This document shows, piece by piece, positions 18,111 through 63,853 of a stretch of 64,000 nucleotides of DNA. The DNA comes from an uncultured Spirochaetales bacterium (GTDB lineage Bacteria; Myxococcota_A; UBA9160; PR03). The translations under genes were made by a program, and so were the position numbers. Position 1 is the first letter of the stretch; each line of letters opens with the position of its first letter. Location of the stretch: contig CAYGWM010000002.1 in assembly GCA_964353555.1 (NCBI GenBank), positions 34,379 through 98,378 on the forward strand. Direction: 5' to 3'. The notes below the pieces were generated by a model that did not search any database, had not been told where the DNA came from, and saw only the letters and a program-made list of their open reading frames with translations.

Positions 18111-18244
18111 CGGTTCGGCCTCCAGTTGACCGTCCGCCATCGATCCATCAGGCCGCGTGCTTGAGTCGAAGGGCCGATTCCGATCGTGACGCGCTGCCAG
18201 CACCCGCGAGGCGCCGCGCCCGAGATCGGCGCCAGCAGCCTCGG

Positions 18245-43925: not shown

Positions 43926-43942
43926 GCCGACTCAGTTGACTC

Positions 43943-44069
43943 GGGGACGTTGGTTGCGCCGGTTGCGTTGGGGACGTTCGTTGCGTCGCGAAACGACGCC
44001 CCAGCTCGCACGGCCATGAAGCGCGACGCAACGAACGTCCCCAACGCAACCGGCGCAACGAGTGTCCCC
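43943..44069. repeat. 127-nt imperfect palindrome (48-nt arms, 31-nt loop), REP/MITE-like element
   Basis: The left arm 43943-43990 is the reverse complement of the right arm 44022-44069 at 45 of 48 positions (hand count; mismatches at 43949, 43950, 43952). Each arm contains two copies of GGGGACGTT(G/C)GTTGCG. Confidence 0.85.
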
Positions 44070-45551: not shown

Positions 45552-45583
45552 GCTTTCGCGTCGCAGTGATTGCGGGAGTTCCG

Positions 45584-47270: not shown

Positions 47271-48140
47271 GTGGGTGGGAATCTGCGACCCGGGCTGACG
47301 ACGCAGGGCGGTGATGCGTGTCCCGTCTGTGGAGCGGAGGCCGAACCGCGCATCGACCTCGGCGACTACCGGCTGTTTCGTTGCCGGCGCTGCGAGTCCT
47401 GGTCGAGCGACGCGCTGGCGCGCGGGGCGCAGACGTCCTTCGAACCCGACGCCTACTTCGCGAATGCCGACACCGATCAGGTGCGGTGGGAAGATCTGCT
47501 GGGGCGCGCGAGGATCGATCGCGCAGGCGCGGCACGAATTCTAGACGTTGGCTGCGGCCGCGGCGATTTCCTGCGCTTCCTCGGCCGACACGGCTCGCCG
47601 AGCGAGCGCTGCGGCATCGAAGTCGATCCCGTGCGCGCGGCGGCAGCGCGCGCCGCGGATCCGGGCGCACAAATCGCGACCGGCGCGGTTTCCGAAGCGC
47701 TTGCGGATCTGGCGGGCGCGTTCGACCTGATCACGCTCTGGGACGTCTTCGAGCACCTCGTCGATCCGCGCGCGGTGCTGCACGCGCTGGCCGCGCGGCT
47801 CGCGCCGGAGGGCCAGCTGTTTCTGCAGACGATTCACGAGCACAGCGTCGTGCCGACACTCGGACGCGCCCTCTACGCGGCATCGGCGGGCCGGATCAGC
47901 GGTCCGGTGCGCCGCACGCATGAGCCCCATCACCTGGTCTTCTTCAGCCGCCGCGGACTCGAGAATCTCGCGGACGAGGCGGGGCTGCGGATTCGGGAGC
48001 TCTGGTTCGATCGGCTCGCGATGGCACGGATGGACGGAAGCCGCGCGCTCACCGCGGCCACGGCGGCGCTGCTCGCGGTCGAGAATGCGCTGGGCAATGG
48101 CCTCTTCGTGAACCTGCTGCTCGAGAAGAAGCCGTTCTAG
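47271..48140 (+). CDS. Class I SAM-dependent methyltransferase with N-terminal zinc ribbon
   Basis: CPVCGAEAEPRIDLGDYRLFRCRRCESW (CxxC..CxxC) followed by ILDVGCGRGDFL (motif I) and DLITLWDVFEHL. The GTG start has GGGGGAAAGG upstream. Confidence 0.82.
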   Translation: MGGNLRPGLTTQGGDACPVCGAEAEPRIDLGDYRLFRCRRCESWSSDALARGAQTSFEPDAYFANADTDQVRWEDLLGRARIDRAGAARILDVGCGRGDFLRFLGRHGSPSERCGIEVDPVRAAAARAADPGAQIATGAVSEALADLAGAFDLITLWDVFEHLVDPRAVLHALAARLAPEGQLFLQTIHEHSVVPTLGRALYAASAGRISGPVRRTHEPHHLVFFSRRGLENLADEAGLRIRELWFDRLAMARMDGSRALTAATAALLAVENALGNGLFVNLLLEKKPF

Positions 48141-48853
48141 CGGCGTCGTGCGCGCAACAGCAGGTTCTTGCCTGCGAGCCGATGCAACGCGCGGTCGAGC
48201 CACAGGCTGACCGGGAACAGCATCCGATCATAGATCCGGACCGAACGCGCGGTGATCTGGCCGTCGGCGCGGCCGATCAGCCGATACGCGAGAGTCGCGA
48301 TGAACCCCAGCGAATCGGCGTAGCGCACGTCGTCCACGACGAAGCCCGCATCGCGAAAAAGCCGCGACAGCTCGCTTTTCCGATAGCGCCGCTGGTGTCC
48401 CACGAGCGTGTCGTTCGCGGTCCACAGCATCGAGAGAGCGGGCACGTAGATCAGGCAGCGACCGCCCGGTGCGAGGTGGTCGTGAAGCTCCCGCGCAACC
48501 TGGGCGTCGTCGGGGCAGTGCTCGAGCACGTTCACCGAAACGGCGTAGTCGAAGCGGCGTTCCCCGAGGTCGCTGAGCGCGGAGACGCTGGTCAGGTGGC
48601 GCTGCGTGAGCCGCGCGCGAAGCTCTGGATCGGGCTCGACGCAGGTGACATCGAGACCGTGGGCGGCGAGCGAAGCCGCGAGCCGCCCGGTGCCGGCGCC
48701 GAAGTCGACGACGGTCCGTGACGACCCTGCGAACGCGAGGACCTGATCGAGCAGGTAGCGGTTGTAGCGCTCGGCGTGGTCGAGTACGTCGAGCAGCGGC
48801 GTCGCTTCGAAACGGCGTTCCAAGCCGGCTACCCGCGCATCGATCGCTTCCAC
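48137..48853 (-). CDS. Class I SAM-dependent methyltransferase
   Basis: VVDFGAGTGRLAASLAAHGLDVTCVEPD (motif I/II) and FDYAVSVNVLEHC. Start set at GTG 48853, which overlaps the GT2 stop by 25 nt. The rest of the 526-aa track ORF (48854..49717) is an out-of-frame read-through of the GT2 gene. Confidence 0.8.
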   Translation of the reverse strand: MEAIDARVAGLERRFEATPLLDVLDHAERYNRYLLDQVLAFAGSSRTVVDFGAGTGRLAASLAAHGLDVTCVEPDPELRARLTQRHLTSVSALSDLGERRFDYAVSVNVLEHCPDDAQVARELHDHLAPGGRCLIYVPALSMLWTANDTLVGHQRRYRKSELSRLFRDAGFVVDDVRYADSLGFIATLAYRLIGRADGQITARSVRIYDRMLFPVSLWLDRALHRLAGKNLLLRARRR

Positions 48854-49764
48854 TGCTCGATCGTCTCCTGGTGATAGCCGGAGATCGTGTCGAGCAGCAG
48901 GCCGACGCCGAAGCTGACGGCCGCGAGGATTGCCAGCCCGGCCGCGAGAATCGCGCGTGGCACGTGGTAGACGTACGCGTGCCGGTAGAAATCGAGCACC
49001 GGCGCCGCGCCTGTGATCACCGAGAAGAGCGCGAAGATCGCCGCCACTGCGGTGAAGAACACGAACGGCTTGTAGTCCTTGAAGAGCAGGAAGATGCATT
49101 TGAAGATCAGCAAGCCGTCGCTGACGGTGTCGAGCTTCGAATGGCTTGCATCGGGCCGGCGCCCATACTCGATCGGAACCTCGAGGATCGGCAGTCCTTT
49201 GGCGAGCGCTTGCAGCGTCATCTCCGTCTCGATCTCGAAGCCTTCGGAACGCAGATGGACGAGTCGCACGAAGCGGCTCGACAGCAGCCGGTAGCCGGAG
49301 AGCACGTCGGTGATCGGCGCCCGGAAGAGCAGCGAGATGATGCGCGCGATCAGCCGGTTGCCGAGTTCGTGAAAGACGCGGAAGGCACCCGCGTCGTGGG
49401 ACTCGAGGCGGGTCGCCACGAGCATGTCGACACCGGTCTCGAGGAAGCGCTGCACCAGGCGCGGCGCTTCGGCGGCGGGGTAGGTGTCGTCGCCGTCGAG
49501 CAGCACGTAGACGTCGGCGTCGATCACGTTGGCCATGTGGCGAATCACGTTTCCCTTGCCGCGCCGCGGCGAGGCGATCACCGCGGCGCCCGACGCGCGC
49601 GCGATCTCGGCGGTCCGGTCGGACGAGCCGTTGTCGAAGACGGTGATCTCCGCGCCGGGCAGCGCGGCCTTCATGTCCTCGATGACTTTCGCCACCGTGC
49701 GCTCTTCGTTCAGGCACGGGATCACCACGGAAACACGGGGCTGTGTGGCGTGTTGCGCGAGCAC
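48829..49764 (-). CDS. Polyprenyl-phosphate glycosyltransferase, GT2 (GtrB/ArnC/DPM1-like)
   Basis: VSVVIPCLNEERTV, DNGSSDRT, and LLDGDDTYP (DxD). Two C-terminal TM helices (FFTAVAAIFALFSVITGAAPVL, AILAAGLAILAAVSFGVGLLL) complete the architecture of lipid-phosphate sugar synthases. Confidence 0.85.
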   Translation of the reverse strand: MLAQHATQPRVSVVIPCLNEERTVAKVIEDMKAALPGAEITVFDNGSSDRTAEIARASGAAVIASPRRGKGNVIRHMANVIDADVYVLLDGDDTYPAAEAPRLVQRFLETGVDMLVATRLESHDAGAFRVFHELGNRLIARIISLLFRAPITDVLSGYRLLSSRFVRLVHLRSEGFEIETEMTLQALAKGLPILEVPIEYGRRPDASHSKLDTVSDGLLIFKCIFLLFKDYKPFVFFTAVAAIFALFSVITGAAPVLDFYRHAYVYHVPRAILAAGLAILAAVSFGVGLLLDTISGYHQETIEQWKRSMRG

Positions 49765-49803
49765 GCGATCAGTCTAGGCCGGTCCGCTGCGAATTCGCCA
49801 AGG

Positions 49804-51783
49804 TCAGCCGAGTTGGCTCCATACGATCGCGCCTAGAAACGCCGCCGCCCAACAGTAGGGAAGGGCACGAATCGCATTCGGGAGACGTCGGTCGAGCGCT
49901 GCGAAGCCGAGCGCGGCCAGCACCGCGAGGGTCGGCGTCAGAGCGAGCGCGTAGAACGATTTGGCGACCGACCAGAACGGATAGTGCAGGCTCACGCTCG
50001 CGATCGAGGCGAGCAGGATCGGGGGCAATACGACGAGCAGCGAGTAGCTGATCCGACGTCCGCGATCGCTCCCGCGCAGCGCCGCGCGTATGGCGCAGGC
50101 CCACCCGAGGCCCAAAATAGGCGTGGCCGGCACGGCGAGCAGGAAGACGGCCGCCATCCACTCGTAGTTCCAGCCGGCGAATCCGAGACGCGGCGAGATC
50201 GCGCCGCTCAGTAGACCATTTCCCCACAGCGTCGAATAGAGCGCGTCCCAGAACGAATGAAAGCTGGAAAACCAGGGTTGCTCGAGCGCATCGCCGAAAC
50301 GCAGGAAGTAGTCGGCGCTGTGAAAGCCCGGGAGTTGCCACCAGCTGTTGTCGGGGTCCGCGTTCAGGTTCCAGACGAGTAAGTTGCCGGAGAGTCGGTA
50401 GTTGCGCAGATAGACCCAGCCCGCGAGCCCCGCTGTGATGGCGAGGCTCAGCGACGCGCCACCGGCCGCGCGCGCGATGCGGGTCCCCTCGACGGTCCAG
50501 CGCTTCGCCGCGAGCGTGCCCAGCAGGATCGGCACCCAGAGCAGGATCGAGTACTTGGTCAGTGCGGCAGCGCCGAATACGATCCCGAGCAGCATGTCAT
50601 CGCGTAGCGACGAGCGCTCGCGCAGCAACGCTCGCAGCGTTGCGAGCAGTGCGAGACTCGCGAGCAGCGCGTAAGGCGCTTCGTTCGAGACACAGGTGGC
50701 GAGCGTGACGTTCATCGGGAGCAGCCCGGCCATCAACGTGGAGCCCGCTGCGAGCCACGGCGCGTCCGGCGCCAGCGTTCGCGCCATGCTCCGCGCGACG
50801 AACGCCAGGCCGAGACCCGACAGGAACGGCAGCAAGACGAGGATCGCGCGGTCCCTTACACCCATCGGGCCGAGCACTCGCAGCAACGCGGCTGTGAGCG
50901 CGTGATAGAGCGGAGGGTGATACATCGCGCTGCCGTCGGTGGGGCGCGGGAGCGCGTGATGGGCGCGGATCCACTCGATGTACTGGATGTGCGCCGACGC
51001 ATCGAAGCCGACTTCAGCGGGCACGCGGGCGATCCGGTGGAACAGGAGAACCCAGAAAAGCGTCACAAGCAGGAGCGCGCCAGTGGGCGCCCATTGCGCC
51101 AGCTCCGGACGCCGTCGGAGCCACCCGAAGAGAGCGCCTCCGGCTGCGCCGAGCAACAACAGCGGCACCGCCTTCGCCCGGAGCGCTGCCGGCGGGGCCG
51201 GTAGCGCGACACTCTCCGGGTGACGGATGCTGTCCTCGGCGCGGACCGCATATGCGACCGGATCGCCCTGCCACGCCGAGATCCAGCGCTCATCGGTGGT
51301 GAGCGTCCCTGCGAGACCGTCGATCCGGAGCTGCAGCGCCGGGTTGCCGGCGGGATTCCGCACCGAGGCGAACAGTACGTTCTCGCCGGCCACCAGGTGG
51401 GGCGTCAGATCCAGCAGCGTCGCGTCCTTCCAGCGATCGGGATCGCGGCCCGGGAGCGGGAGTTCCTTCCCGTTGAGCAGTAGCGAGACCTCGCGCAGCG
51501 CGCGCACGCGCAGCGTCACATGCGTCGCTCCCGGCTTTGCGATGAACTTGCGCTCGAAAAAACTCGTCGGCGGCTTCGCCCGCTCGATCAGCATGCCGTC
51601 GGTCTGCAGCGGCGTCCGCGCGACGATCCACGGGGTGTCGTCGCGCGCGAGGAAGGGCACAGCCGGCGAACGCAGCACGTCCCAGGTGAGGACGCCTGCG
51701 ATGCCGAGTGCGAGCAGTGCCGCGATCGCGAGCTGGCCGCGCGTGAAACGGCGCTCGGCGCGCTCGACCAGATCAGCGCTCAA
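49804..51783 (-). CDS. GT-C-fold membrane glycosyltransferase (PMT_2/ArnT-like) with ~200-aa N-terminal extracytoplasmic domain
   Basis: One N-terminal TM (LAIAALLALGIAGVL), then a beta-rich soluble segment (TLRVRALREVSLLLNGKELPLP...NVLFASVRNPAGNPALQLRIDG). After that come at least 10 TM helices with GFDASAHIQYIEW and YHPPLYHAL loops typical of GT39/GT83-like enzymes. The TTG start is uncertain. Confidence 0.72.
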   Translation of the reverse strand: MSADLVERAERRFTRGQLAIAALLALGIAGVLTWDVLRSPAVPFLARDDTPWIVARTPLQTDGMLIERAKPPTSFFERKFIAKPGATHVTLRVRALREVSLLLNGKELPLPGRDPDRWKDATLLDLTPHLVAGENVLFASVRNPAGNPALQLRIDGLAGTLTTDERWISAWQGDPVAYAVRAEDSIRHPESVALPAPPAALRAKAVPLLLLGAAGGALFGWLRRRPELAQWAPTGALLLVTLFWVLLFHRIARVPAEVGFDASAHIQYIEWIRAHHALPRPTDGSAMYHPPLYHALTAALLRVLGPMGVRDRAILVLLPFLSGLGLAFVARSMARTLAPDAPWLAAGSTLMAGLLPMNVTLATCVSNEAPYALLASLALLATLRALLRERSSLRDDMLLGIVFGAAALTKYSILLWVPILLGTLAAKRWTVEGTRIARAAGGASLSLAITAGLAGWVYLRNYRLSGNLLVWNLNADPDNSWWQLPGFHSADYFLRFGDALEQPWFSSFHSFWDALYSTLWGNGLLSGAISPRLGFAGWNYEWMAAVFLLAVPATPILGLGWACAIRAALRGSDRGRRISYSLLVVLPPILLASIASVSLHYPFWSVAKSFYALALTPTLAVLAALGFAALDRRLPNAIRALPYCWAAAFLGAIVWSQLG

Positions 51784-51909
51784 GGTGATCCTCTACTGTG
51801 TTCATCGCAGTCAACTCCCCGGCGCAGGCTGCACGCTGCTGCTCGCGACGACCTTTGCTATGAACGAATGATTCGGCGCGCCATGGTATCGACGAGGAGT
51901 GAGCGCACC

Positions 51910-54141
51910 ATGTCCCGCCCGCTTCGCACGCTGTTGCTTGCCGCTCTGCTCGTTGCGGCGACGCTCGCTAGCTACGCGCCGACGTTCTCGGCGGCCTTCG
52001 TCGACATCGACGATGCCGACTATGTGCCGGAGAACGAGACGGTCAAAGCGGGCCTCGGTGTCGACGGCGTGGTGTGGGCCTTTACCGACTCGCACGCGGG
52101 CAACTGGTTCCCGCTCACCTGGATCAGCCACATGGCCGACGTGGAGCTCTTTGGCGTCGAGCCGACGGGGCACCACGCGATGAACGTCGCGTTGCACGTC
52201 GCGAACGCGCTGCTGCTGTTCCTGGCGCTGGCGTCGATCACCGGGGAGTGGGCCCCGAGTTTCGTCGTGGCCGGCCTGTTCGCGCTGCATCCGGCCAACG
52301 TCGAATCGGTGGCCTGGATCTCGCAGCGCAAGACCACGCTCGCCACGCTCTTCGGAATTCTCGCGATCTGGAGCTATGCCCGCTACGCGCGGGCCGGAAA
52401 GCGATCGTCGTACGTGCTGAGTCTCGCGAGCTTCGCGCTCTCGCTGCTGTCGAAGCAGATGTTCGTGACGTTGCCGTTCGCGCTGCTGCTGCTCGATTAC
52501 TGGCCGCTCCGGCGTGCAGAGCTGGAACCGCGCGATGGGGACGGACCGACGCTCCGCTCCATGTCGCGCGGCTGGTTGCGGCTGCTGCCCGAGAAGATCC
52601 CGTTCCTGCTGCTTGCGCTGGCTGCGAGCGTCGCGGCGATCGTCTCGCAACGCGACGCGATCTCGACGGGTGCGGCGTACCCGCTTGCGGTGCGCCTCGG
52701 CAACGTCGCGCTCTCCTACGTTCACTACCTCGGGATGCTGATCTCGCCGACGCATCTGGCGGTGTTCTACCCGCTCTACGAAGACGATGTCACGCTGGCC
52801 AGGGTGCTCGCGAGTGTCGCAGTGCTGCTCGGCATCTCAGTCGGCGTCTGGCGGTTCGGCCGAACCCGGCGCTTCCTGCTCGTCGGCTGGATCTGGTTCC
52901 TGGGTACGCTGGTGCCGGTGATCGGCCTGGTGCAGATCGGCGGGCAGTCGAGGGCGGACCGTTACGCGTACGTGCCGTTCTGGGGCCTCTTGATCGCGCT
53001 GACGTGGACAGGGTGGAATCTCGTCCAGTCGCCGGGCGCGGGCCGGGAGGTGCGTGGGGCGGTGCTTGCGGGTGTCGCAGCGCTGCTCGCGATTCTCGGA
53101 GTCCAGACGTTTCGGCAGGCGGAGAAGTGGCACGACTCGATCGCGCTCTTCGAGGACGCGGTGGCGGACACCGATCGCAACTACGTCGCGCACCGCGCGC
53201 TGGCGGGCCAGTACTTCAACCGCGGCGACTTCGCGCAGGCGCTCCATCACGCCGAGGAGGGCGCGAAGCATCCGCGCGATCTCGGCGAGGTGCTGCCGGT
53301 CTACGGAATGGCGCTCTATCAGACCGGCTCGAAGGCAAGGGCGATCGAGAAGCTCGAAGAGGCGACGCGCGTGGCGCCGAACAACGTGATGGGATTCACG
53401 AACCTCGGCTGGATCTACCTGCAGGAGGGAGACTACGAGGATGCGGTCGAATCGCTGCACGCCGCACTGCGCGTCGATCCGCAGAGCGCCCGCGCCGCCC
53501 AGCTGCTCGCGACGACGGAACTGCGCCGCGGAAATCTCGCGGAGGCCGCGACGGCATTCGAACGCGTGGTCGCACTCGAAGGGCAGAACTTCGATGCGCG
53601 GATCGAGTGGGCGCGGACGCTGGCGACACTGGAGCGCTCAGCGGAGGCCGCTGACGTTCTGCGCAGCGCGCTCGTCGCGGCGCGCCAGTTTCCCGAGGCG
53701 CAACGCAGCCGGCTGACGTCGACGCTCCACCAGTATCTCGGCGACGTTCTGCTGGCGCAGCCGGATCGCAACGGCGCTGCCGCGCACTACGAACTCGCGC
53801 TCGCGGAGTGGGCAGACAACTACGGGGCGAATCGCAATCTCGCGACGCTGCTGCTGACGACGGAGGGCGCGGTGCGCAGCGATCCCGCGCGCGCGGTGCT
53901 TCTCGCCGAGCATGCCTGCACGCTGTCGCAGCGTCGCAAGCCCGAGGCGTTGGCAACGCTTGCCTCGGCCTACGCCGCAGCGGGACGGCGCGACGACGCC
54001 GCGCGCGTCGCGCGCGAGGCGCTGGTGCTGGCGCGCGAGACGGGCAACGTCCCGATGATCGAGATGCTCGAAGCGCAACTCGGCTCTGGTGCGCAAGCGG
54101 CTCGACCGTTCGGCGAGACGGAATCGTCGTTGCATCGCTGA
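51910..54141 (+). CDS. TMTC-like GT-C glycosyltransferase (DUF1736-type membrane domain + C-terminal TPR array)
   Basis: Start is ATG 51910. TM1 is followed by FVDIDDADYV. Loop LFALHPANVESVAWISQRK and about 11 TM helices. The C-terminal ~330 aa are TPR repeats (NLGWIYLQEGDYEDAVESLHAALRVDP...). The track ORF 51520.. is over-extended. Confidence 0.8.
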   Translation: MSRPLRTLLLAALLVAATLASYAPTFSAAFVDIDDADYVPENETVKAGLGVDGVVWAFTDSHAGNWFPLTWISHMADVELFGVEPTGHHAMNVALHVANALLLFLALASITGEWAPSFVVAGLFALHPANVESVAWISQRKTTLATLFGILAIWSYARYARAGKRSSYVLSLASFALSLLSKQMFVTLPFALLLLDYWPLRRAELEPRDGDGPTLRSMSRGWLRLLPEKIPFLLLALAASVAAIVSQRDAISTGAAYPLAVRLGNVALSYVHYLGMLISPTHLAVFYPLYEDDVTLARVLASVAVLLGISVGVWRFGRTRRFLLVGWIWFLGTLVPVIGLVQIGGQSRADRYAYVPFWGLLIALTWTGWNLVQSPGAGREVRGAVLAGVAALLAILGVQTFRQAEKWHDSIALFEDAVADTDRNYVAHRALAGQYFNRGDFAQALHHAEEGAKHPRDLGEVLPVYGMALYQTGSKARAIEKLEEATRVAPNNVMGFTNLGWIYLQEGDYEDAVESLHAALRVDPQSARAAQLLATTELRRGNLAEAATAFERVVALEGQNFDARIEWARTLATLERSAEAADVLRSALVAARQFPEAQRSRLTSTLHQYLGDVLLAQPDRNGAAAHYELALAEWADNYGANRNLATLLLTTEGAVRSDPARAVLLAEHACTLSQRRKPEALATLASAYAAAGRRDDAARVAREALVLARETGNVPMIEMLEAQLGSGAQAARPFGETESSLHR

Positions 54142-54158
54142 GCGGTGCCGCGTTCCTC

Positions 54159-56222: not shown

Positions 56223-56225
56223 CGA

Positions 56226-57968
56226 CTACTGAGACCCTGCGGATGCGCGGGTGTCGTAGATCCGGATCGATCCGAGTCGCAGTACCGGCTCGTAGGATCG
56301 CAGCCACGCGGCGGTGTCACCGCTGACTCCCACCAAGCCACCACCCGGCGCGACGGTCAAGTAGGAGTAGCCCCACAGGAAATTCTCGGAGACCGCGATG
56401 ATTCCCGACACGGGCGTCGGTGGCAGCAGTCGATATTGCAGCCCATAGAGAGCCGGATCGACGAGCCCGAAGTACAGCAGATAGGGCGTCTCTGCTGGAT
56501 CGATGGCTGCCACCGCAGCTGGCACCCGGTAGAGGTCCTGTCCCCAATCGAGGTTCGAGTCGAGCAGCCACTCGCTCCCATGACGGGGCCCGCCCGCGAT
56601 CGCGTTGAAGAACGTGAGGTAGTCGGGGTGGATCGTCGCGACGTTGAAAACGGTCGCCGCCGCTGCACCCGCGGCGAGCGCCAGCGACACGCGTTCGCGC
56701 CCGCCGCTTCGCGTCGCCATGAACACGGGGCCCAGCAGCAGGAACAGGAACGGGAACGCGGGCAGCACGTGTCGGATTCCGATGTTCAGGTTGCTGGCCG
56801 TCGCGAACACCACGATGAGCGTCGCGAGTGGGACCAGCAACGAGTAGAGCTCGATCCTCGCGACTTCGCTGCGGCGCCAAAATGCGACAGACGCCGCCAG
56901 CAGCACGAGGATCGCGACTGGCAGTTTCACGCCGAGCGCGACCCCGTTGTAGTACCACCAGCCGTGCTCCGACCATTGCCCCATCAAGTAGCTGCCGAAT
57001 TCGCCGTGTTCGGAGATCTCCTTCGCCGCATCGAAGCCGAGCGCCCACTCGCGCGGCAGCGGCACCGGAGTCCACGCGGGGAGGACGCTTTGCAGCGACG
57101 TGGCAAAGTGCGAGCGGAACGCGAGGCTGCCGAGCGCGCAGAACGATTCCTCGAAGCCGATGCTCGCGTTGAGCACGACGAGCGCCGCGACGAGAATCCA
57201 CGCGAAGTCTCCGGACGCCTGCTGGAGTCGGCGCGCGGGGGATCGCGTCGCGGCGCGCCATCGATGCACAACGGCGAGCAGCGCGAACGCCGGAAGCAGC
57301 AGCACCGCGAGGAACTTGGTGGCGAGCGCGAGCCCGAGCGCAGCGCCGGCGACGAGCAGCCGCGTGCGCGTCGGATCCCGGTAGCTCCAGCGCAGCGCGA
57401 ACATTGCGAGCAGGATCGTCGTGAGCGCCCCCATGTCGATCGTCGCCAGATGGCCGTGCGCCAGCACGTTCGGGCACAGCAGGAAGAGCGAAGTGACCAC
57501 GGCGGCGGCGCGCAATCCGAAGGCGTCGCGTGCCCACAGGAAGACGACCAGGCCCGCGAGCAATCCGAGAGCGATCGCCACCCAGCGCGCGCGGAACATC
57601 AGCGTCAGGTACTGGGCGCGATTCGCCTCCAGGAAGCGATGGCCGTATTCCCACGGCCCCCACTGCATCGGTGGCTCGACGACGACCGGGGCATTCACCG
57701 ACGCGTCGGCGGCGATGGGCGCTGCCAGCAGCAGCTTCAGCAGCGGCGGATTCACGCGATACAGATCGGTTCGACCCTGGCGCCAGGCCGCGACGCCGGC
57801 GGGCACGTGCGCGAACTCGTCGGCGGTGGGCGTCTCGACGCGTGCGGCATGCAGCGTGAGCGCGAGGTACGCGATCGCAGCGGCGACGGGCATCCATGCC
57901 CAGGCCTTCGGCTCTCGCGCGATTCTCTCTGCTGCGCGGTCGTCGTCGCGTTGCGGCATGCCAGTCAT
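56226..57968 (-). CDS. GT-C-fold membrane glycosyltransferase (GT39/ArnT-like, no TPR)
   Basis: TM1 is followed by ETPTADEFAHVPAG...LYRVNPPLLKLL (typical first-loop motif). About 12 TM helices and a C-terminal soluble domain of about 130 aa. Confidence 0.75.
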   Translation of the reverse strand: MTGMPQRDDDRAAERIAREPKAWAWMPVAAAIAYLALTLHAARVETPTADEFAHVPAGVAAWRQGRTDLYRVNPPLLKLLLAAPIAADASVNAPVVVEPPMQWGPWEYGHRFLEANRAQYLTLMFRARWVAIALGLLAGLVVFLWARDAFGLRAAAVVTSLFLLCPNVLAHGHLATIDMGALTTILLAMFALRWSYRDPTRTRLLVAGAALGLALATKFLAVLLLPAFALLAVVHRWRAATRSPARRLQQASGDFAWILVAALVVLNASIGFEESFCALGSLAFRSHFATSLQSVLPAWTPVPLPREWALGFDAAKEISEHGEFGSYLMGQWSEHGWWYYNGVALGVKLPVAILVLLAASVAFWRRSEVARIELYSLLVPLATLIVVFATASNLNIGIRHVLPAFPFLFLLLGPVFMATRSGGRERVSLALAAGAAAATVFNVATIHPDYLTFFNAIAGGPRHGSEWLLDSNLDWGQDLYRVPAAVAAIDPAETPYLLYFGLVDPALYGLQYRLLPPTPVSGIIAVSENFLWGYSYLTVAPGGGLVGVSGDTAAWLRSYEPVLRLGSIRIYDTRASAGSQ

Positions 57969-58108
57969 CGGGTGCGGCGGAGACTACCACCCGCGCGACT
58001 CGCCTTGACGATGACCTCGGCAGCGAGGCAGTGTCCGCGGCCGTGCTTCGAAACCCGCAACGCCAGCATTCCTTGCGTACAACGCAGCAGTGTCGGACCG
58101 GCAGGCGC

Positions 58109-59251
58109 GTGGCGACGGCGTTCGCCCTCGCTACGGTCACCGCGGCGACGCTGGGCGCGGTCTGCGACCCGAGCGCCATCCGCGTCACGAATCGGCTGCC
58201 CGACCCCGCGCTCGTCGACGCCCGTGGCGACGTCGACCCCGACGGCTTCGATGCGCTGGTGGCGGCGACCGAGAAGCAGCGCGGGCTGGGATTCATCCAG
58301 CGCCCGCGTCTCGAATTGTTGCGCGACGACGATCCGCGGCTCGCGTCGCTGCGCGAACGGGCGCGGGCGCTCGCGCCGTGTCCTCGCGTCGCGGCCGCGG
58401 CCGCGAACGCGAGCGCAGCCGAAGCCGACGCGCCCGGAAGCTGCTTTCCCGATCCGGGTCTGCAATGGGTGCTCTGCCTTGCGCCGCCCGATCGCGAGCA
58501 GGCGCGCCGCGCTCTGAAGCGCTTGCTCGATGCGCAGAACTATCCGCGGCTCGCGGACGCGGCGCCGGTGCTGCGCGGCGATCCCGGTGTCGCGATCCGA
58601 TCGCTGCTCGCCGCCAGCGCGCGCAGCGTCGCGACCGGCCGCGGCGATTCCGGCGCGGAGGCGCCCTCGTTCGAGATCCTCGAAGAGCTGGATGTCGTGG
58701 TGCCGCGCTCGGCGACTCCCGAGGCCATCTGCGTCGATCTCGCCGACGGATTCCTCGGCACCCACCGCGATCGCGAAGCGCCGTTCCGGACGCCGCCGCT
58801 TTCGACCAAGCAGCTGGCGAGTTCGCGCGCGTACCGCGGATCCGAGCGTCCGTACCGGATCGTGGGTCCCGCGCCGACACCCGACGGATGCGAGGTCGAG
58901 AGCGATGAGAGTATCGGCGTCGCGAGGCTGCTGGCCGAGCGAATGGCGATAGGGGGATTGCTGCCGGGACGTGCGCTCGCGGGCTGGCGGGGCGATCGCG
59001 GCATCCGCTTCGCGTGTCCGGACGGCGCCCGGCCGTGGCTCTACCTGGCGGAACTCGCCGCGAAGGCTGATGCGACTGCGTTCGCAGCGCAGATTCCGCA
59101 GTCGCTTCCGGCGGAGTTCGCGGGCGCTTCGGAGACGCTGCGTCTCGGGCGGCGCGTCGTGATCTTCCACGACTTCGATCGGGACCGCGCACGCGCGTGG
59201 GCGACGTCGGCCGCGACCGACGAGCTCACGCGTCTCGACGAGCTCGATTGA
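58109..59251 (+). CDS. Hypothetical exported protein embedded in the GT-C block
   Basis: In-frame GTG 58109 gives the hydrophobic N-terminus VATAFALATVTAATLGAVC. No family recognised; there are several Cys pairs. The stop overlaps the start of the next GT-C gene (TGATG). The track ORF start at 57896 overlaps the divergent gene. Confidence 0.5.
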   Translation: MATAFALATVTAATLGAVCDPSAIRVTNRLPDPALVDARGDVDPDGFDALVAATEKQRGLGFIQRPRLELLRDDDPRLASLRERARALAPCPRVAAAAANASAAEADAPGSCFPDPGLQWVLCLAPPDREQARRALKRLLDAQNYPRLADAAPVLRGDPGVAIRSLLAASARSVATGRGDSGAEAPSFEILEELDVVVPRSATPEAICVDLADGFLGTHRDREAPFRTPPLSTKQLASSRAYRGSERPYRIVGPAPTPDGCEVESDESIGVARLLAERMAIGGLLPGRALAGWRGDRGIRFACPDGARPWLYLAELAAKADATAFAAQIPQSLPAEFAGASETLRLGRRVVIFHDFDRDRARAWATSAATDELTRLDELD

Positions 59252-61425
59252 TGCGCTGGAAGCTCTGCCTGCTGTTCGGACTCGCGCTGGCGGTGCGGCT
59301 GCTGCATTTCGCCGCGATGCAACACTCGATGCTGTACGAGCTGCTGCTGGGTGACGCCAGCCAGTACGACCGTTGGGCGCAACAGATCGCGGCCGGCGAC
59401 TGGCTCGGCTCCGAGGTCTTCTACCAGACACCGCTCTATCCGTATCTGCTGGGCGCGTCGTATCGCGTCTTCGGCCACGACCCCTGGGTCGTGCGCATCT
59501 TGCAGGCGGTCTTCGGTGCGCTGTCGTGTGTCTTCCTCGCGCGCGCCGGCGCCGGGTTCTTCTCGGAACGCGTCGGCTGGATCGCCGGAATCCTGCTCGC
59601 GTTCTATCCGCCGGCGATCTTTTTCGACGGCATCGTGCAGAAGGCGTCGCTCGATCTGCTGCTGATGACCGCGCTGCTGTGGCTCGCGGCGATCACGCAG
59701 GCGCGTCCGCGCGCCGGCCCGCTTTTCGGCATCGGAATGTTGCTGGGCGCGATGATGCTGAACCGCGAGAACGCGGCGGTGCTCGCGCCGGTGCTGCTCG
59801 CCTGGATCGCGTGGTGCGCGTGGCCGCGTGGCGCGCTGCGCGTGGCGCTCTTCGGTGCGAGCTTCGTGCTCGGCGCCGCAGCGCTGCTGGTGCCGGTCGG
59901 CGTCCGCAACGCCTACGTCGGCGGCGAATTCCTGGTCACGACGTCGCAGATGGGATCGAACTTCTACATCGGCAACCACCGCGGCGCGGACGGCAGCTAC
60001 ACGCCGATGCGAGCCGGTCGGGGCGACGCGACCTACGAGCGCGACGACGCGCGGCGGATCGCGGAAGACCAGTCGAAGCGCGCGCTGCATCCGTCGGAAG
60101 TGTCGGCGTACTGGATGGCGCGATCCTGGGATGAGATTCGCAGCGCGCCAGAAGAGTGGATGCGGCTGCTCGCCTGGAAGTGGTTCCTCACCTGGAACCG
60201 GCTCGAACTCGTCGACGCCGAGGCGATCCATACCCACCAACAAGACTCGCCGCCGCTGCGCGCGCTCGGCTGGATCCTGCAATTCGGCGTGCTCGTGCCG
60301 CTCGCCGTGATGGGCCTCTGGTGGACGCGAGCGCAGTGGCGGCGTCTGTGGCTGCTATATGCGATGGGCGCGAGCTTCGCGGCTGCGGTGACCCTCTTCT
60401 ATGTGTTCGCCCGCTATCGCTATCCGCTGGTTCCGATCGCGGCGTTGTTCGCGGGGGCGGGACTCGCCGAAGGCTGGCGTCGGCTTCGCGATCGTCGCGG
60501 CGCGTCGGTGCGCGAACTCGGCGTCGGGCTCGCGCTCGGCGCGGCGGCCGCCGTCGCGACCAACTGGCCGGTTCCGCAGCGCTACGCCGACGACGCCGTG
60601 ACGTACTACAACGCCGGAACCGCGCTGCTCGAGGCGGGCCGCGTGCGTGACGCGTTGCATCTGCTCGAAGCGGCGCGGCGCGCCGACGCGCAGTTCCCGG
60701 AGACCTACAACAATCTGGGACGCGCCTTCATGGCGCAGGGGAATCTGGCGGAGGCGCGTCGCAGCCTGGAACGCGGCGTCGCGCTCGCGCCGAGCCACGC
60801 GGTGCTGCACTTCAATCTCGCCGTCGCGGCGTCGCAGCAGGGCGACGACGCGACGGCGCGAGCGATGCTGGCGAAGGCGATCGAACTCGACCCGCTGCTG
60901 GCGCCAGCCTACGGACCGCTCGCGGAGCTGGAACTTCGCAGTGGGGACTTGGACTCTGCGATCCGCCGCTTGCGGCGCGCCGTCGAACTCGAGCCCGATG
61001 CGGCAGTTGCTCACGCGGATCTCGGGCTCGCGCTGCTGATGCAGGGGAAAGCGCCCGAGGCCGTGACCGAACTGCGCGCCGCGCTGCGTGCGGATCCGCA
61101 TCTGTTGCCGGTCCGGAATCGGCTGGCCTGGATCCTCGCGACCGCCGCCGACCCGCAACTGCGGAATGGTCGTGAGGCGCTGGCTCTCGCGGAGGAAACG
61201 TGTCGGCCCACTGGCTGCCGCCAGCCGGAGCTACTGCAGACGCTCGCGGCCGCCTACGCGGCTTCGGGTGCGTTCGGCGAGGCCGAGAAGGTCGCTGCCG
61301 ACGGAATCCGGCTGGCTCGCGACGGCAACCAGGTCGAGTTGGCAGAGCGGCTGGAGCGGCAGAAGCGCTCCTACCGGGAGGGACTGCCGCTGCGCGAGAG
61401 CGCCGTCACTACGGAGCGTCGCTGA
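59251..61425 (+). CDS. GT-C-fold glycosyltransferase (PMT_2/GT39-like membrane domain) fused to C-terminal TPR array
   Basis: MRWKLCLLFGLALAVRLLHF...LGDASQYDRWAQQI..YQTPLYPYLLG (first loop) and about 11 TM helices. The C-terminal ~290 aa are TPRs (TYNNLGRAFMAQGNLAEARRSLERGVALAP...). Start is ATG 59251. Confidence 0.8.
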   Translation: MRWKLCLLFGLALAVRLLHFAAMQHSMLYELLLGDASQYDRWAQQIAAGDWLGSEVFYQTPLYPYLLGASYRVFGHDPWVVRILQAVFGALSCVFLARAGAGFFSERVGWIAGILLAFYPPAIFFDGIVQKASLDLLLMTALLWLAAITQARPRAGPLFGIGMLLGAMMLNRENAAVLAPVLLAWIAWCAWPRGALRVALFGASFVLGAAALLVPVGVRNAYVGGEFLVTTSQMGSNFYIGNHRGADGSYTPMRAGRGDATYERDDARRIAEDQSKRALHPSEVSAYWMARSWDEIRSAPEEWMRLLAWKWFLTWNRLELVDAEAIHTHQQDSPPLRALGWILQFGVLVPLAVMGLWWTRAQWRRLWLLYAMGASFAAAVTLFYVFARYRYPLVPIAALFAGAGLAEGWRRLRDRRGASVRELGVGLALGAAAAVATNWPVPQRYADDAVTYYNAGTALLEAGRVRDALHLLEAARRADAQFPETYNNLGRAFMAQGNLAEARRSLERGVALAPSHAVLHFNLAVAASQQGDDATARAMLAKAIELDPLLAPAYGPLAELELRSGDLDSAIRRLRRAVELEPDAAVAHADLGLALLMQGKAPEAVTELRAALRADPHLLPVRNRLAWILATAADPQLRNGREALALAEETCRPTGCRQPELLQTLAAAYAASGAFGEAEKVAADGIRLARDGNQVELAERLERQKRSYREGLPLRESAVTTERR

Positions 61426-63853
61426 CCCGCGGCGGCTGCCCGTAAAGCTGCAGCTGTTGCTCGAGCGCCGCGACGGCCGATCGGTCGTTGGCCCGGGTCG
61501 CGAGGTCCAGAGCCTCACGCGCGGTAGCGGCCGCCACGGGCAGCCGCCCCGCGGCCGCATTCGCCACTGCGAGCGTGGCCAGCGACCCGTACTCCCGGCG
61601 CTGGCTGCAAGCACGCGTGGCGAGTTCGATCGCACGGGGCGGGTCGCGGAGCGTCGGATCCGCGGCGGTTGCGAGCAGGAAGGCGAGGCGGTTGTTGGCG
61701 TCGTAGTTGTCGGGCCAGACGGAGACCGCGCGATCGAGCGCTGCGATCGCGTCCGCGACATCCCCGTGTTCGAGCGCGATCTCGCCGCGATGGGTGAGCA
61801 CGGTGGAGGTGACGAAGCGCGCGTCCGCGTCGTTGGCAGGCGGAGGCTGCGCGAGCAGCGCATCGAGCAGCCGGATCGCTTCGTCGCGCCGGTCCTCGCT
61901 GGCGAGCGTTCTCGCGAGGTCGATGGTGACGACCGCCTGGCGCGGATTCGATGCGAGTGCGCGCTCGAAGCGGTTCGCCGCCTCGGCCGAGTTGCCTTGT
62001 AGTTCGAGCGCGCTGGCGAGCAGGTACGCGGCATCGGCATCCCCCGGATCGGCGGCGAGCACGCGGCGCAGGCGCTCGATGGCTGCTTCGGGATCGCGCA
62101 AGCGCAGGTCGACGCGCGCCGCATCGCGCAGCAAGGCGGCCTCGTTCGGCTCGATCTCGAGCGCGAGCGCGAACTTCTCGCGGGATTCCTGCAGCCGCCT
62201 GGTCTTCGCGAGCGCGCTGGCCCAGTTTGCGAAGATCGTCTTGCGCGTGTAGCCCGGCGTGGTGTGCTCGATCAGACGGGCGGCGTTCGCGAGGCGCGCC
62301 AGCGCGAGGTCGTAGAGGCCACGCTCGGTGTAGATCCAGCCGAGGTTCATGTAGCCGACGGGATTGTCCGGCTCCTGCGCCACCGCCAGTTCGAACTGCT
62401 CGAGCGCGAGGTCCGGGAATCCGGTCTCGTAGAGCGCGAGTCCCCAGGTGCTGCGGATCGTTCCCATGTCGCGGTTGTGCTTCGCCGCTTGCTGGCAGTG
62501 CTCGATCGTCTTCGGGAAGTCGCTGCGTGCGAAATAGCGCTCCGCGAGGACCCCGTGCGCGAGCCAGTTCCGCTCGGTGTTGGCGAGCGTGTGTTCGAAG
62601 AGCCCGATCTCGTCGTGCCATTTCGCGCTTTGGCGATGCGTGAGCAGCGCCAGTCCCGCGAGCAGCAGCGCGAGCGCCATTCCCGCGATCGCTCGCACGG
62701 CGGCCGGAGTCGGGCGCCATCGCAGCAGGTCCTGGGCGGACCACGCGAGTGCGATTCCGAGCCCCCAGAACGGCGCATACACATAGCGGTCCGCCATCGA
62801 CTGCATGCCGACCTGCACGAGGCCGATCACCGGGACCAGCGTCCCGAGGAACCAGAGCCAACCCACCAGCAGGTAGCGGTGGCGAAATCCGAGCCAGACG
62901 AATGCGATCGTCGTCGCGACCAAGATTGCGACACACGAGAGCACCAGGCGGGGCGTCAATCCTTCCGGGTCGAGCGGATAGAAGACCGCGAGATGGAACG
63001 GCGCGAAGAAGGTCCGGATGTATGCGACGTAGGAGAGCGCGACGTTGCCGAGGCGGGCCGCGATCGAGAAGTTCTCGACGGTCGACATCGAATCCTGTTG
63101 CGCGTGGAGCGTGATGACCGACGTCGCCACCGAGAGCAGCACGAACGGAAGCTTCTCCGGAAGCAGCTTCCACCAGCCGCGCGCTAGCGCGCGCGGCGTG
63201 ATGGCGCTCCCTTCGGCCGTCTCGAACGCGGCGCGCCGGAGCGGCCAGTAGTCCAGCAGCAGCAGTCCGAAGGGCAGCGTCACGAACATTCCCTTGGACA
63301 TCAGCGAGAGCGCGAGGCACAGAACGCTCGCGACGTAACGGCTGCGACCGCCGCCGCGCGCGTAGCGCGCGTAGCTCCCGATCGACAGCAGCGCGAAGAG
63401 CGTCGAGAGCAGCGTCTTGCGCTGCGCGATCCACGCGACCGACTCGACGTTGGCTGGATGCAGCGCAAAGACCGCCGCGACGAACAGACTCGGCGCCACG
63501 TCATTCGTCAGCGAGCGCAGCACGAGAAAGAGCAGCACCGCATTCAGTAGATGCAGCGCGACGTTCACCGCGTGATGGCCGCGGGGCTCGAGGCCGAAGA
63601 CCTCGACGTCGATCATGTGGCTGATCCACGTGAGCGGGTGCCAGTTCGACGACTGATGGCCGGTGAGCGCCCAACGGATGTTCGCGAGCCGCAGGCCGGT
63701 CGCTACCGGTGGATTGGCTTGGATGTAGGCCGAGTCGTCGAAGCGGATGAACTCCGCATCGAGGGCGGGTCCGTAGCTCCAGAGCGTCGCGGCGATCAGC
63801 ACGGCGAGCACGACCAGCCAGCGGAATCTGGGAAACATCAGGTGCGGATCCAC
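61409..63853 (-). CDS. TMTC-like GT-C glycosyltransferase (DUF1736-type membrane domain + long C-terminal TPR array)
   Basis: TM1 is followed by IRFDDSAYI. Loop VFALHPANVESVAWIAQRK. It is collinear with the 51910..54141 protein over the whole membrane domain. The C-terminal ~400 aa are TPRs. Start is GTG 63853 or ATG 63838 (GAGGTG upstream of the latter). Confidence 0.8.
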   Translation of the reverse strand: MDPHLMFPRFRWLVVLAVLIAATLWSYGPALDAEFIRFDDSAYIQANPPVATGLRLANIRWALTGHQSSNWHPLTWISHMIDVEVFGLEPRGHHAVNVALHLLNAVLLFLVLRSLTNDVAPSLFVAAVFALHPANVESVAWIAQRKTLLSTLFALLSIGSYARYARGGGRSRYVASVLCLALSLMSKGMFVTLPFGLLLLDYWPLRRAAFETAEGSAITPRALARGWWKLLPEKLPFVLLSVATSVITLHAQQDSMSTVENFSIAARLGNVALSYVAYIRTFFAPFHLAVFYPLDPEGLTPRLVLSCVAILVATTIAFVWLGFRHRYLLVGWLWFLGTLVPVIGLVQVGMQSMADRYVYAPFWGLGIALAWSAQDLLRWRPTPAAVRAIAGMALALLLAGLALLTHRQSAKWHDEIGLFEHTLANTERNWLAHGVLAERYFARSDFPKTIEHCQQAAKHNRDMGTIRSTWGLALYETGFPDLALEQFELAVAQEPDNPVGYMNLGWIYTERGLYDLALARLANAARLIEHTTPGYTRKTIFANWASALAKTRRLQESREKFALALEIEPNEAALLRDAARVDLRLRDPEAAIERLRRVLAADPGDADAAYLLASALELQGNSAEAANRFERALASNPRQAVVTIDLARTLASEDRRDEAIRLLDALLAQPPPANDADARFVTSTVLTHRGEIALEHGDVADAIAALDRAVSVWPDNYDANNRLAFLLATAADPTLRDPPRAIELATRACSQRREYGSLATLAVANAAAGRLPVAAATAREALDLATRANDRSAVAALEQQLQLYGQPPRVSDAP

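Follow-up and report, generated by a model that had tools for sequence, protein, structure and literature searches.

The stretch of DNA considered here, 64 kb of contig CAYGWM010000002.1 (assembly GCA_964353555.1) from an uncultured, high-GC, Myxococcota-like ('delta-proteobacterial') bacterium and hereafter called the window, carries a compact cluster of genes that we label MT2, MT1, GT2, GTC1, GTC2, GTC3, GTC4, X5, GTC6 and GTC7. Six of them code for large polytopic glycosyltransferases of the GT-C type, several fused to tetratricopeptide repeats (TPRs), and these are accompanied by a putative lipid-phosphate-sugar synthase, by methyltransferases and by a member of an unannotated protein family. 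A preliminary description of this DNA had proposed that the region codes for a system of periplasmic O-glycosylation; the six polytopic open reading frames (ORFs) on which it was built are all present. The genes are as follows:

47271-48140 (+): MT2, a class I S-adenosylmethionine (SAM) methyltransferase, convergent on MT1 (Methyltransf_23, 92.8 bits)
48137-48853 (-): MT1, a class I SAM-dependent methyltransferase, last gene of the GTC1-GT2-MT operon (Methyltransf_23, 77.6 bits)
48829-49764 (-): GT2, of polyprenyl-phosphate hexose synthase type; a GT-A catalytic domain is followed by C-terminal transmembrane (TM) helices (Pfam Glycos_transf_2, 68 bits)
49804-51783 (-): GTC1, a GT-C protein with a lectin-like domain, first gene of the GTC1-GT2-MT operon (PMT_2, 29.7 bits, cutoff 26.1)
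51910-54141 (+): GTC2, a TPR-fused GT-C protein of the TMTC-like family (PMT_2, 20.9-22.4 bits, below threshold; TPRs at residues 465-710)
54159-56222 (-): GTC3, a TPR-fused GT-C protein that diverges from the others of the TMTC-like family and comes second in the GTC4-GTC3 pair (homology and TPR matches)
56226-57968 (-): GTC4, a GT-C protein of the PMT/PMT_2 type without TPRs, with a C-terminal extramembrane segment (PF02366 PMT, 42.1 bits, cutoff 22.7; PMT_2, 35.6 bits)
58109-59251 (+): X5, unannotated family, predicted to be secreted and probably lipid-anchored (signal sequence and conserved Cys of its homologues)
59251-61425 (+): GTC6, a GT-C protein of the PMT_2 type fused to TPRs (PMT_2, 47.1 bits, and TPR matches)
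61409-63853 (-): GTC7, a TPR-fused GT-C protein of the TMTC-like family (homology and AlphaFold model; TPRs at residues 436-800)

Gaps and orientations divide the cluster into five transcription units, GTC1-GT2-MT1, GTC2, GTC4-GTC3, X5-GTC6 and GTC7. In the first of these, GT2, with its C-terminal TM helices, begins 39 nt past the stop of GTC1 on the same strand, and MT1 abuts or overlaps the 3' end of GT2 (by 25 nt with the start called by the Joint Genome Institute, JGI, in the 99%-identical contig L005; numbers of this kind denote loci in other genomes), much as the preliminary description had it. Real genes were told from the many spurious ORFs of this DNA via codon-position GC bias, and the six GT-C ORFs show that bias, with 0.83-0.87 GC at third codon positions (GC3). 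Of eight genes in a row, six code for GT-C proteins; about 30 of the roughly 36 genes beyond the cluster were scanned and contained no further one; and other contigs show the arrangement again, so that this grouping is not a matter of chance. The word 'island', used in the preliminary description, is true only of a conserved gene cluster, because the base composition of the window is uniform (68-70% GC) and that of the cluster equals that of its flanks. That description did not mention X5, nor the convergent MT2, which lay within its span, nor a pair of B12-binding radical SAM genes with an oxidoreductase immediately upstream.

The GT-C type of the six proteins can be established along several lines. 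The Pfam models PMT or PMT_2 match GTC1, GTC4 and GTC6 above their curated thresholds and GTC2 just below; GTC3 and GTC7 have no GT-C match of their own in Pfam. At the level of BLASTP, GTC2 and GTC7 share 45% identity over their full length, and GTC3 aligns with both, again over the full length, at 25-26% identity (E=1e-24 to 1e-28). GTC6 relates to these three only via its TPR region, and BLASTP connects the membrane domains of GTC1, GTC4 and GTC6 neither with these three nor with one another. Since BLASTP relates only GTC2, GTC3 and GTC7, the six proteins make up four sequence families. The N-terminal domain of GTC7 has at least 8000 homologues, as all 8000 candidates scored pass E<=1e-5; many of them carry PF13231, several have been named 'protein O-mannosyl-transferase' by JGI, and four of the five homologue domains tested pass the PMT_2 threshold. 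An AlphaFold model of residues 1-415 of GTC7, made on a 60-sequence alignment, has a pLDDT of 92.1 and a pTM of 0.92, and its best 24 Foldseek matches in the PDB are all GT-C proteins (probability 0.97-1.00, TM-score 0.36-0.54), with STT3, PglB, AglB, ArnT, DPY19, Pmt4, Pmt1/2, AftD and Emb among them. Full-length GTC1, modelled on 52 sequences (pLDDT 93.9), has a core whose best PDB matches are ArnT, AglB, STT3, Pmt4 and AftA (Foldseek E down to 3.7e-6). Searches by sequence in PDB chains brought nothing for GTC7 (1-415) and GTC4 with phmmer and were swamped by TPR proteins with the profile of the TMTC-like alignment described below; an exact-sequence look-up of GTC3 returned no record. Two models with their Foldseek matches, Pfam matches for three proteins and full-length homology for the other two thus bear out the GT-C fold put forward in the preliminary description, and the type is confirmed for all six: GTC1 and GTC7 by fold, GTC2 and GTC3 by full-length homology, GTC4 and GTC6 by Pfam only.

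The residues expected of such enzymes are also in place. The acidic motifs FVDIDDADYV, IRFDDSAYI, YVSDDEIYI, TPTADEFAHV, LGDASQYDRW and GFDASAHIQY, to which attention had been drawn earlier, do follow the first, or first core, hydrophobic segment of their proteins. In an alignment of 60 TMTC-like sequences that includes GTC2, GTC3 and GTC7 (A3), D39/D40 are invariant, and D261 of GFDASAH is invariant across the 52 sequences of the GTC1-family alignment; the conservation anticipated for the first-loop acidic residue is therefore found, as an invariant Asp, in both aligned families. The DE of TPTADEFAHV in GTC4 is kept in the orthologues of L006 and L091, and D35 of GTC6, within LLGDA, in five orthologues, all of them close. 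Besides DD, the invariant residues of A3 are HP..E..W..RK, K..T and DR..Y. The order of helices in the GTC7 model, taken together with the positive-inside pattern of Arg and Lys residues, suggests a cytoplasmic N-terminus and would put the TPR domain, like every invariant polar residue, in the periplasm. TPR arrays occur in exactly four of the proteins, as had been claimed. A further motif, N.LA.LLAT..DP..R....A..LAE.A, is shared by the C-terminal 90 residues or so of GTC2, GTC6 and GTC7; in GTC6 it coincides with the 'TPR end-of-group' domain of NCBIfam (NF047558, 39.5 bits).

How far GTC2, GTC3 and GTC7 resemble the TMTC1-4 proteins of family GT105 required a closer look, as the preliminary description had placed proteins of the cluster in the DUF1736/TMTC group on account of a loop, HP(A/V)(N/H)VE(S/T)VAW..RK, held to be typical of DUF1736. 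The loop is indeed present in all three (51910-54141, 54159-56222 and 61409-63853), but when the GTC7 model is compared with the published account of TMTC proteins its place is between TM3 and TM4, away from the DUF1736 loop (PMC7801869). Pfam DUF1736 itself (PF08409, the TM7-TM8 loop) matched neither these proteins nor five homologues at E up to 1; PMT_2 matched instead, and is the nearest Pfam family. What remains TMTC-like is the architecture, with about 11 TM helices in the GTC7 model followed by a C-terminal TPR domain (luminal in TMTC proteins, predicted to be periplasmic here), and about four of the seven published motifs M1-M7, with which the comparison was made rather than by direct alignment with TMTC sequences (PMC7801869, Table 4). 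The invariant DD of the first loop (M1) is common to both; K....T of loop EL3 (M4) and (D/E)RxxY before TM10 (M7, here (D)RxxY) agree in spacing and stand at equivalent places; M2 and M3 agree in part; and M5 (DW) and M6 (PxxP) were not found in the TMTC-like alignment. The segment FAVHPIHT of TMTC3 recalls HP..E at TM3 of the window family, whereas SHKSYRP is replaced by (S/N)WHPLTW and, where M3 has the Asp of RxD, GTC2, GTC3 and GTC7 have Thr or Asn (PMC7801869). Because DUF1736 never matched, DW and PxxP are absent and the HP loop lies elsewhere, we do not call these proteins GT105: judged by their sequences, they are a bacterial family of the PMT_2 clan with a TMTC-like architecture.

The protein expected to feed these enzymes is GT2. 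Its best NCBIfam match is AglJ (TIGR04182), at 220 bits over nearly the full length, below the equivalog cutoff of 325, followed by a haloarchaeal dolichyl-phosphate (Dol-P) hexose transferase, PpgS and ArnC; its best sequence match in the PDB is the Dol-P-mannose (Dol-P-Man) synthase of Pyrococcus furiosus (5MLZ, E=1.6e-11), and two to three hydrophobic segments occupy its C-terminal part (residues 234-294). It would thus be of the polyprenyl-phosphate hexose synthase type, related to AglJ but not its equivalog. A scan of one genome per species yielded 591 relatives in many phyla, and among the 80 loci inspected about 51 have a polytopic neighbour, the criterion being 350 aa or more, six or more TM segments and a distance of no more than 700 nt. 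Pfam assigns these neighbours to DUF6020 (17), PMT_2 (10), STT3 (2), PMT (2), YfhO, DUF2142 and others, so that the GT2 family appears to be a general partner of GT-C-type proteins, as expected of a lipid-phosphate-sugar synthase. The AglJ score, the Dol-P-Man synthase match and these neighbours across phyla all agree with the synthase type assigned in the preliminary description. DUF6020 is the commonest polytopic partner, ahead of PMT_2 (17 of 58, loci L008-L086), and may be a further family of the GT-C type. With a hexose-synthase-type GT2 adjacent to them, the window GT-C enzymes would use a polyprenyl-phosphate-linked sugar as their donor.

Methyltransferases belong to the same picture. 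A homologue of MT1 stands directly after GT2 in L001, L003, L005, L006, L008, L021, L068, L090 and L095, a methyltransferase adjoins GT2 in other arrangements in several more loci, and a convergent second methyltransferase follows GT2-MT in L003, L006 and L008. MT2 is a probable, if not certain, member of the glycosylation system. An apparent fusion of GT2 with a methyltransferase (P0050, 542 aa, the sum of the two genes) was not counted as Rosetta-stone evidence, because its ENA assembly series, ERZ25039xxx, is also that of L006, where gene fragmentation is plain to see.

The preliminary description implied that the genes should occur together in related genomes, and they do. Gene order is the same in L005 (99% identity for GT2), in L006 (77% identity) and in L091 and L092 (77% and 52% identity for X5), with orthologues of GTC3 holding the same position in all four. 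In L090, L095 and L096 the same parts come back in another order, at 52% identity for GTC1 and 42% for X5: two GTC1-like genes, GT2, a methyltransferase, one to three TMTC-like genes and X5 (L096 starts partway through GT2 and has a single GTC1-like copy on it). GTC1 itself is found next to GT2-MT in L001, L005, L006, L090 and L095. The L090 cluster also contains a PEP-CTERM, that is, exosortase-sorted, protein (7166-7843, minus strand). The nearest species-level genome, a metagenome-assembled genome (MAG) named 'uncultured delta proteobacterium' (L001), keeps GTC1-GT2-MT and a GTC2-like gene and is otherwise different; a spermine-synthase-like protein of 1040 aa with TPRs (L001:4842-7964, plus strand) lies there directly upstream of GTC1-GT2-MT, in place of the TPR-fused GT-C genes of the window. 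In a Nitrospiria MAG, a TMTC-like TPR protein adjoins GT2-MT divergently. In the Myxococcota MAG GCA_050618075.1 (L003:7745-9949, plus strand), and again in L004, the slot upstream of GT2-MT is taken by an oligosaccharyltransferase of the STT3/AglB type; after this STT3-GT2-MT set come, in L003, a convergent methyltransferase and an MBOAT gene. AglB with an AglJ-like protein makes an archaeal-looking pair in a bacterium.

These comparisons bear on a restrictive explanation, according to which GTC1-GT2-MT is the only functional unit, the other five GT-C proteins being mere neighbours that use donors made elsewhere and owe their place to shared regulation or to a history of duplication. GTC1-GT2-MT is the sole tight GT2 operon (a 39-nt gap, then an overlap), the other genes form four separate transcription units of alternating orientation, relatives of GT2 as a rule have one GT-C partner, TMTC-like genes exist elsewhere without a nearby GT2, and L001 keeps the operon among different neighbours. 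Against this, L090, L095 and L096 again unite GT2-MT with GTC1-like genes, TMTC-like genes and X5, reordered and at only about 42-52% identity, a TMTC-like gene lies beside GT2-MT in Nitrospiria, and no second lipid-sugar synthase was found in the window. We regard this explanation as quite improbable.

What the cluster works on is another matter, and the member most closely tied to GT2 leads away from proteins. GTC1 begins with an additional TM helix and contains a β-sandwich (residues ~40-190, predicted to be periplasmic) akin to lectins and carbohydrate-binding modules; it matches the sugar-binding domains of GH78 α-L-rhamnosidases and a lectin of Pleurotus ostreatus, and resembles rhamnose- and galactose-binding modules. 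The family is small, with 62 matches, every one labelled 'hypothetical'; a good number of them are on contigs of exactly the same length as contigs with close homologues of GT2. GTC1 was also considered as a diverged STT3, an idea rejected after it showed no significant similarity to the STT3 of L003. To judge from the modelled domain, the acceptor of GTC1 most likely carries sugar already, as it would if the enzyme extended or decorated a glycan, for example.

The main rival to a protein-directed system starts from here: the cluster would build or decorate a periplasmic or surface glycan (polysaccharide, lipopolysaccharide core or O-antigen, lipoglycan) and not proteins, with each GT-C family making a different linkage from one polyprenyl-phosphate hexose, methyltransferases giving O-methylated sugars and TPRs serving as scaffolds. 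Mycobacterial assembly of mannan and arabinan (MptA/B/C, Emb, Aft) and RgtE with RgtA-D of Rhizobium would be its precedents. Six enzymes in four BLAST-unrelated families suit different linkages; GTC1, within the GT2 operon, has its domain of the rhamnose- and galactose-binding kind; Emb and AftD, which carry carbohydrate-binding domains, are among the structural matches of the window models; methyltransferases are conserved beside GT2; and the PEP-CTERM protein within the L090 cluster belongs to a class linked to exopolysaccharide loci. Yet the genes that usually accompany such assembly are missing. As the preliminary description had noted, neither Wzx, Wzy or WaaL, nor a GtrA-like small polytopic protein, nor a nucleotide-sugar gene was found anywhere in the 64-kb window, and the same search space brought no initiating phosphoglycosyltransferase, polymerase, ligase or exporter. 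No ORF of 70-330 aa with coding-type GC3 in the window qualifies as a small flippase (GtrA/SMR or MATE); among ORFs of this size only two have at least three hydrophobic segments, a TsaD-family protein and a rhomboid protein, both outside the cluster. A PEP-CTERM motif was sought in the window and not found, and the pilin N-methylation motif (G-F-T-L-I-E type) is absent from all its frames.

Another point against glycan assembly comes from X5. This protein has no match in Pfam, NCBIfam or the PDB, and an exhaustive HMMER search of 1.84 billion representatives found only 39 homologous clusters. In its homologues a signal sequence leads, in the manner of lipoproteins, to a conserved Cys, after which come a variable Pro-rich linker and a conserved domain; the invariant residues include T233 within FRxPPLSTxQL, C261, C303 and W293-G-D-R. 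An apparent fusion homologue (P0332, 845 aa) was rejected as an Arg-rich, wrong-frame ORF from a high-GC contig. The stop of X5 overlaps the start of a TPR-fused GT-C gene, or lies at most 13 nt from it, in all 11 loci with downstream sequence; in the window, the two codons overlap as TGATG, with the ATG that of GTC6. The gene downstream is GTC6-like in the window and in six metagenome loci, and TMTC-like in four loci; TPRs were found in all four downstream proteins tested, as well as in the TMTC-like gene divergent from X5 in L095. As the two downstream families of GT-C proteins share only the TPR domain, a relationship between X5 and the TPRs is indicated, and because it is always translationally coupled to a TPR-fused GT-C protein, X5 stands out as the foremost candidate for the role of dedicated acceptor or obligate TPR-bound subunit. 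Coupling with enzymes of two unrelated families, where TPRs are the common denominator, speaks for a protein acceptor, and is easier to understand through protein-protein recognition.

There is a precedent for this arrangement. TfpW of Pseudomonas aeruginosa, a GT-C protein that has a DDx motif, about 11 TM helices and, at its C-terminus, a TPR domain located in the periplasm, O-glycosylates pilin, and the gene of its acceptor, pilA, lies immediately upstream, as X5 lies upstream of GTC6 (bioRxiv 10.1101/2020.04.19.049825). The comparison is one of architecture and gene order, and it has differences: the donor of TfpW is a lipid-linked D-arabinofuranose from a Dpr-type pathway, and the window contains no pilin gene. 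Outside the cluster, however, the closest TMTC-like homologues (about 47% identity) flank type IV pilin-like (N_methyl) genes, two or three in tandem, in L087:2571-11890, L088:6183-11860 and L106:2926-9854, a neighbourhood that also holds a Rieske oxygenase and an ABC transporter; pilin-like genes are not beside the TMTC-like homologue in a Syntrophales contig. We take the pilin-like neighbours to be in keeping with a pilA-tfpW-like arrangement of X5 and GTC6. They too argue against a purely glycan-directed cluster, as does the fact that the characterised TPR-fused GT-C proteins, TfpW and TMTC1-4, act on proteins (bioRxiv 10.1101/2020.04.19.049825, PMC7801869). All in all, we hold stepwise glycan assembly by the whole cluster to be rather unlikely.

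The reading that we favour, and consider fairly probable, is that these chromosomal genes serve glycosylation outside the cytoplasm, fed by a lipid-phosphate-monosaccharide donor; the targets would most likely be proteins for the TPR enzymes and a sugar-bearing acceptor for GTC1. Going by its family, GT2 would take the hexose of a nucleotide sugar and attach it to polyprenyl phosphate at the cytoplasmic face of the inner membrane. MT1, and possibly MT2, might then methylate the sugar or the final product, a role suggested by conserved gene adjacency. A flippase encoded elsewhere would bring the donor to the periplasmic face, where the six GT-C proteins, endowed with the appropriate fold and residues, would transfer the sugar by means of their first-loop Asp, predicted to be periplasmic. 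For the four TPR-fused enzymes, the most likely targets would be folded proteins of the periplasm or the surface that the TPR solenoids recognise, as with TfpW and pilin or TMTC1-4 and cadherins, with X5 as candidate dedicated acceptor or obligate TPR-bound subunit; GTC1, with its lectin-like β-sandwich and no TPRs, might for example extend or decorate the glycan. Gene content, folds, invariant residues and synteny are the observed part of this reading, and the donor, the sidedness, the acceptors and the part played by the methyltransferases are its inferred part. The preliminary description went further, in that it proposed several acceptor-specific transferases drawing on one donor. This is possible, to the extent that gene content can tell; stepwise building of a glycan fits equally well, because four unrelated GT-C families are involved and the GT2-coupled GTC1 has a domain of a sugar-binding type.

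To be sure, a number of facts weigh against the reading just given. No flippase gene was found in the window, which could mean that it is encoded elsewhere in the genome. TPR domains located in the periplasm also scaffold polysaccharide machineries (BcsC, PgaA, AlgK), so that TPRs are no proof of a protein acceptor. The lectin-like domain of GTC1 points to a glycan as acceptor. With some 25 invariant residues, several of them acidic, X5 would fit an enzyme as well as a passive acceptor. Most TMTC-like homologues elsewhere have no GT2 nearby, and a TMTC-like gene is present in only two of about 80 GT2-anchored genome loci; the link between GT2 and TPR enzymes therefore rests on one lineage and one Nitrospiria locus.

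A narrower proposal can be drawn from the same facts. X5 and the TPR-fused GT-C protein coupled to it would constitute a two-gene module, in which the TPRs capture one folded lipoprotein and the GT-C domain O-glycosylates it, for example on the Thr of FRxPPLSTxQL, with a possibly methylated hexose supplied by GT2-MT. In this precise form the proposal is unlikely and we offer it as a speculation; the module of X5 and its TPR-fused GT-C protein is nevertheless the most original and the most testable part of the cluster.

The general scheme is not new. Among the closest known systems are AglJ with AglB in Haloferax and Ppm1 with Pmt in actinobacteria. The window GT2 is closest to the AglJ-type Dol-P-hexose synthases, and an STT3/AglB-type enzyme does lie upstream of GT2-MT in the Myxococcota relative L003; by contrast, the score of GT2 stays below the AglJ cutoff (220 bits vs 325) and the window has no STT3. 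The likeness to Ppm1/Pmt lies in GTC4, which matches Pfam PMT. Many GT-C enzymes served by a single polyprenyl-phosphate-sugar donor are known from the assembly of mannan and arabinan in mycobacteria and corynebacteria (MptA/B/C, Emb and Aft, dependent on polyprenyl phosphomannose or decaprenyl phosphoarabinose, PPM/DPA) and from RgtE with RgtA-D in Rhizobium. Some of these enzymes carry carbohydrate-binding domains; as a group they are of other sequence families than those of the window, and come without TPR fusions or X5. In the three-component systems of the Gtr type (Shigella, Salmonella, and Citrobacter youngae for a pentofuranose), a GT2 charges polyprenyl phosphate and a periplasmic GT-C enzyme transfers the sugar (PMC11127046). 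There, as in the window, a GT2-type synthase with C-terminal TM helices is encoded beside a GT-C protein, and the lipid-linked sugar may be tailored before transfer; here, however, six GT-C proteins of four families replace one, four of them are TPR-fused, no GtrA, SMR or MATE flippase gene and no O-antigen locus is nearby, and methyltransferases and X5 are extra conserved members (PMC11127046). In streptococci, GtrB/PgtC2 and PgfS/PgfM1 follow the donor-to-protein logic that the preliminary description proposed, with a GT2-made undecaprenyl-phosphate monosaccharide used by a GT-C enzyme to O-glycosylate extracytoplasmic proteins (PMC12041528). The streptococcal GT-C enzymes are YfhO-type proteins without TPRs whose targets are disordered regions rich in Ser and Thr (PMC12041528), and PgfS is only a weak match to the window GT2 (28.6 bits).

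It follows that to speak of an 'undescribed' system, as was done at first, is too strong, since the scheme of a lipid-phosphate-sugar GT2 with a periplasmic GT-C enzyme is established (PMC11127046, PMC12041528) and TfpW has been characterised. Nor does it hold that bacterial homologues have no assigned acceptor, TfpW being a TPR-fused GT-C protein that glycosylates pilin (bioRxiv 10.1101/2020.04.19.049825). What is new, as far as the searchable literature shows, is the conserved combination of several TPR enzymes of the TMTC-like and PMT_2 types, a GT-C protein with a lectin domain, an AglJ-like GT2 with its methyltransferase, and X5.

The surroundings of the cluster are mostly unremarkable. 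The remaining genes of the window are housekeeping genes (dxr, rseP, ilvC, psd, pssA, leuA/B, asd, truA, pyrG, ilvIH, uvrA and others). Immediately upstream of MT2, and co-directional with it, lies the following group:

42357-47206 (+): two B12-binding radical SAM genes around a GMC-family flavin-dependent (FAD) oxidoreductase (Pfam B12-binding and Radical_SAM; GMC_oxred_N/C)

NCBIfam gave no specific family assignment for these genes. Fragments of radical SAM and GMC genes also adjoin the cluster in L006 and are absent from L001 and L090; a functional tie between the two is uncertain. A GT1-family glycosyltransferase like the macrolide- and rifamycin-inactivating enzymes (Rgt, 192 bits, far below cutoff) is encoded at positions 16884-18140 (minus strand), a long way from the cluster and apparently without relation to it.

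TPR-fused GT-C proteins are extremely abundant in environmental bacteria, where they usually go under the labels 'tetratricopeptide repeat protein' or 'protein O-mannosyl-transferase'. In the searchable literature, TfpW is the only one studied experimentally in bacteria, and we found no paper on the bacterial TMTC-like family. The locus described here unites, in conserved form, a probable donor synthase, possible donor-tailoring enzymes, four TPR-fused GT-C proteins and a candidate protein partner, so that the question of the acceptors of bacterial TMTC-like enzymes becomes approachable by heterologous reconstitution, even with an uncultured host. If a glycan were the acceptor, the cluster would represent a multi-GT-C pathway of extracytoplasmic glycan synthesis in a Gram-negative lineage. 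If proteins are, domain-specific O-glycosylation of the TMTC type would extend to bacteria; and should the module of X5 and its TPR enzyme work as surmised, it would be a self-contained bacterial counterpart of the domain-specific O-mannosylation carried out by eukaryotic TMTC proteins, and would provide the first acceptor outside pilins for a very large family of bacterial TPR-fused GT-C enzymes.

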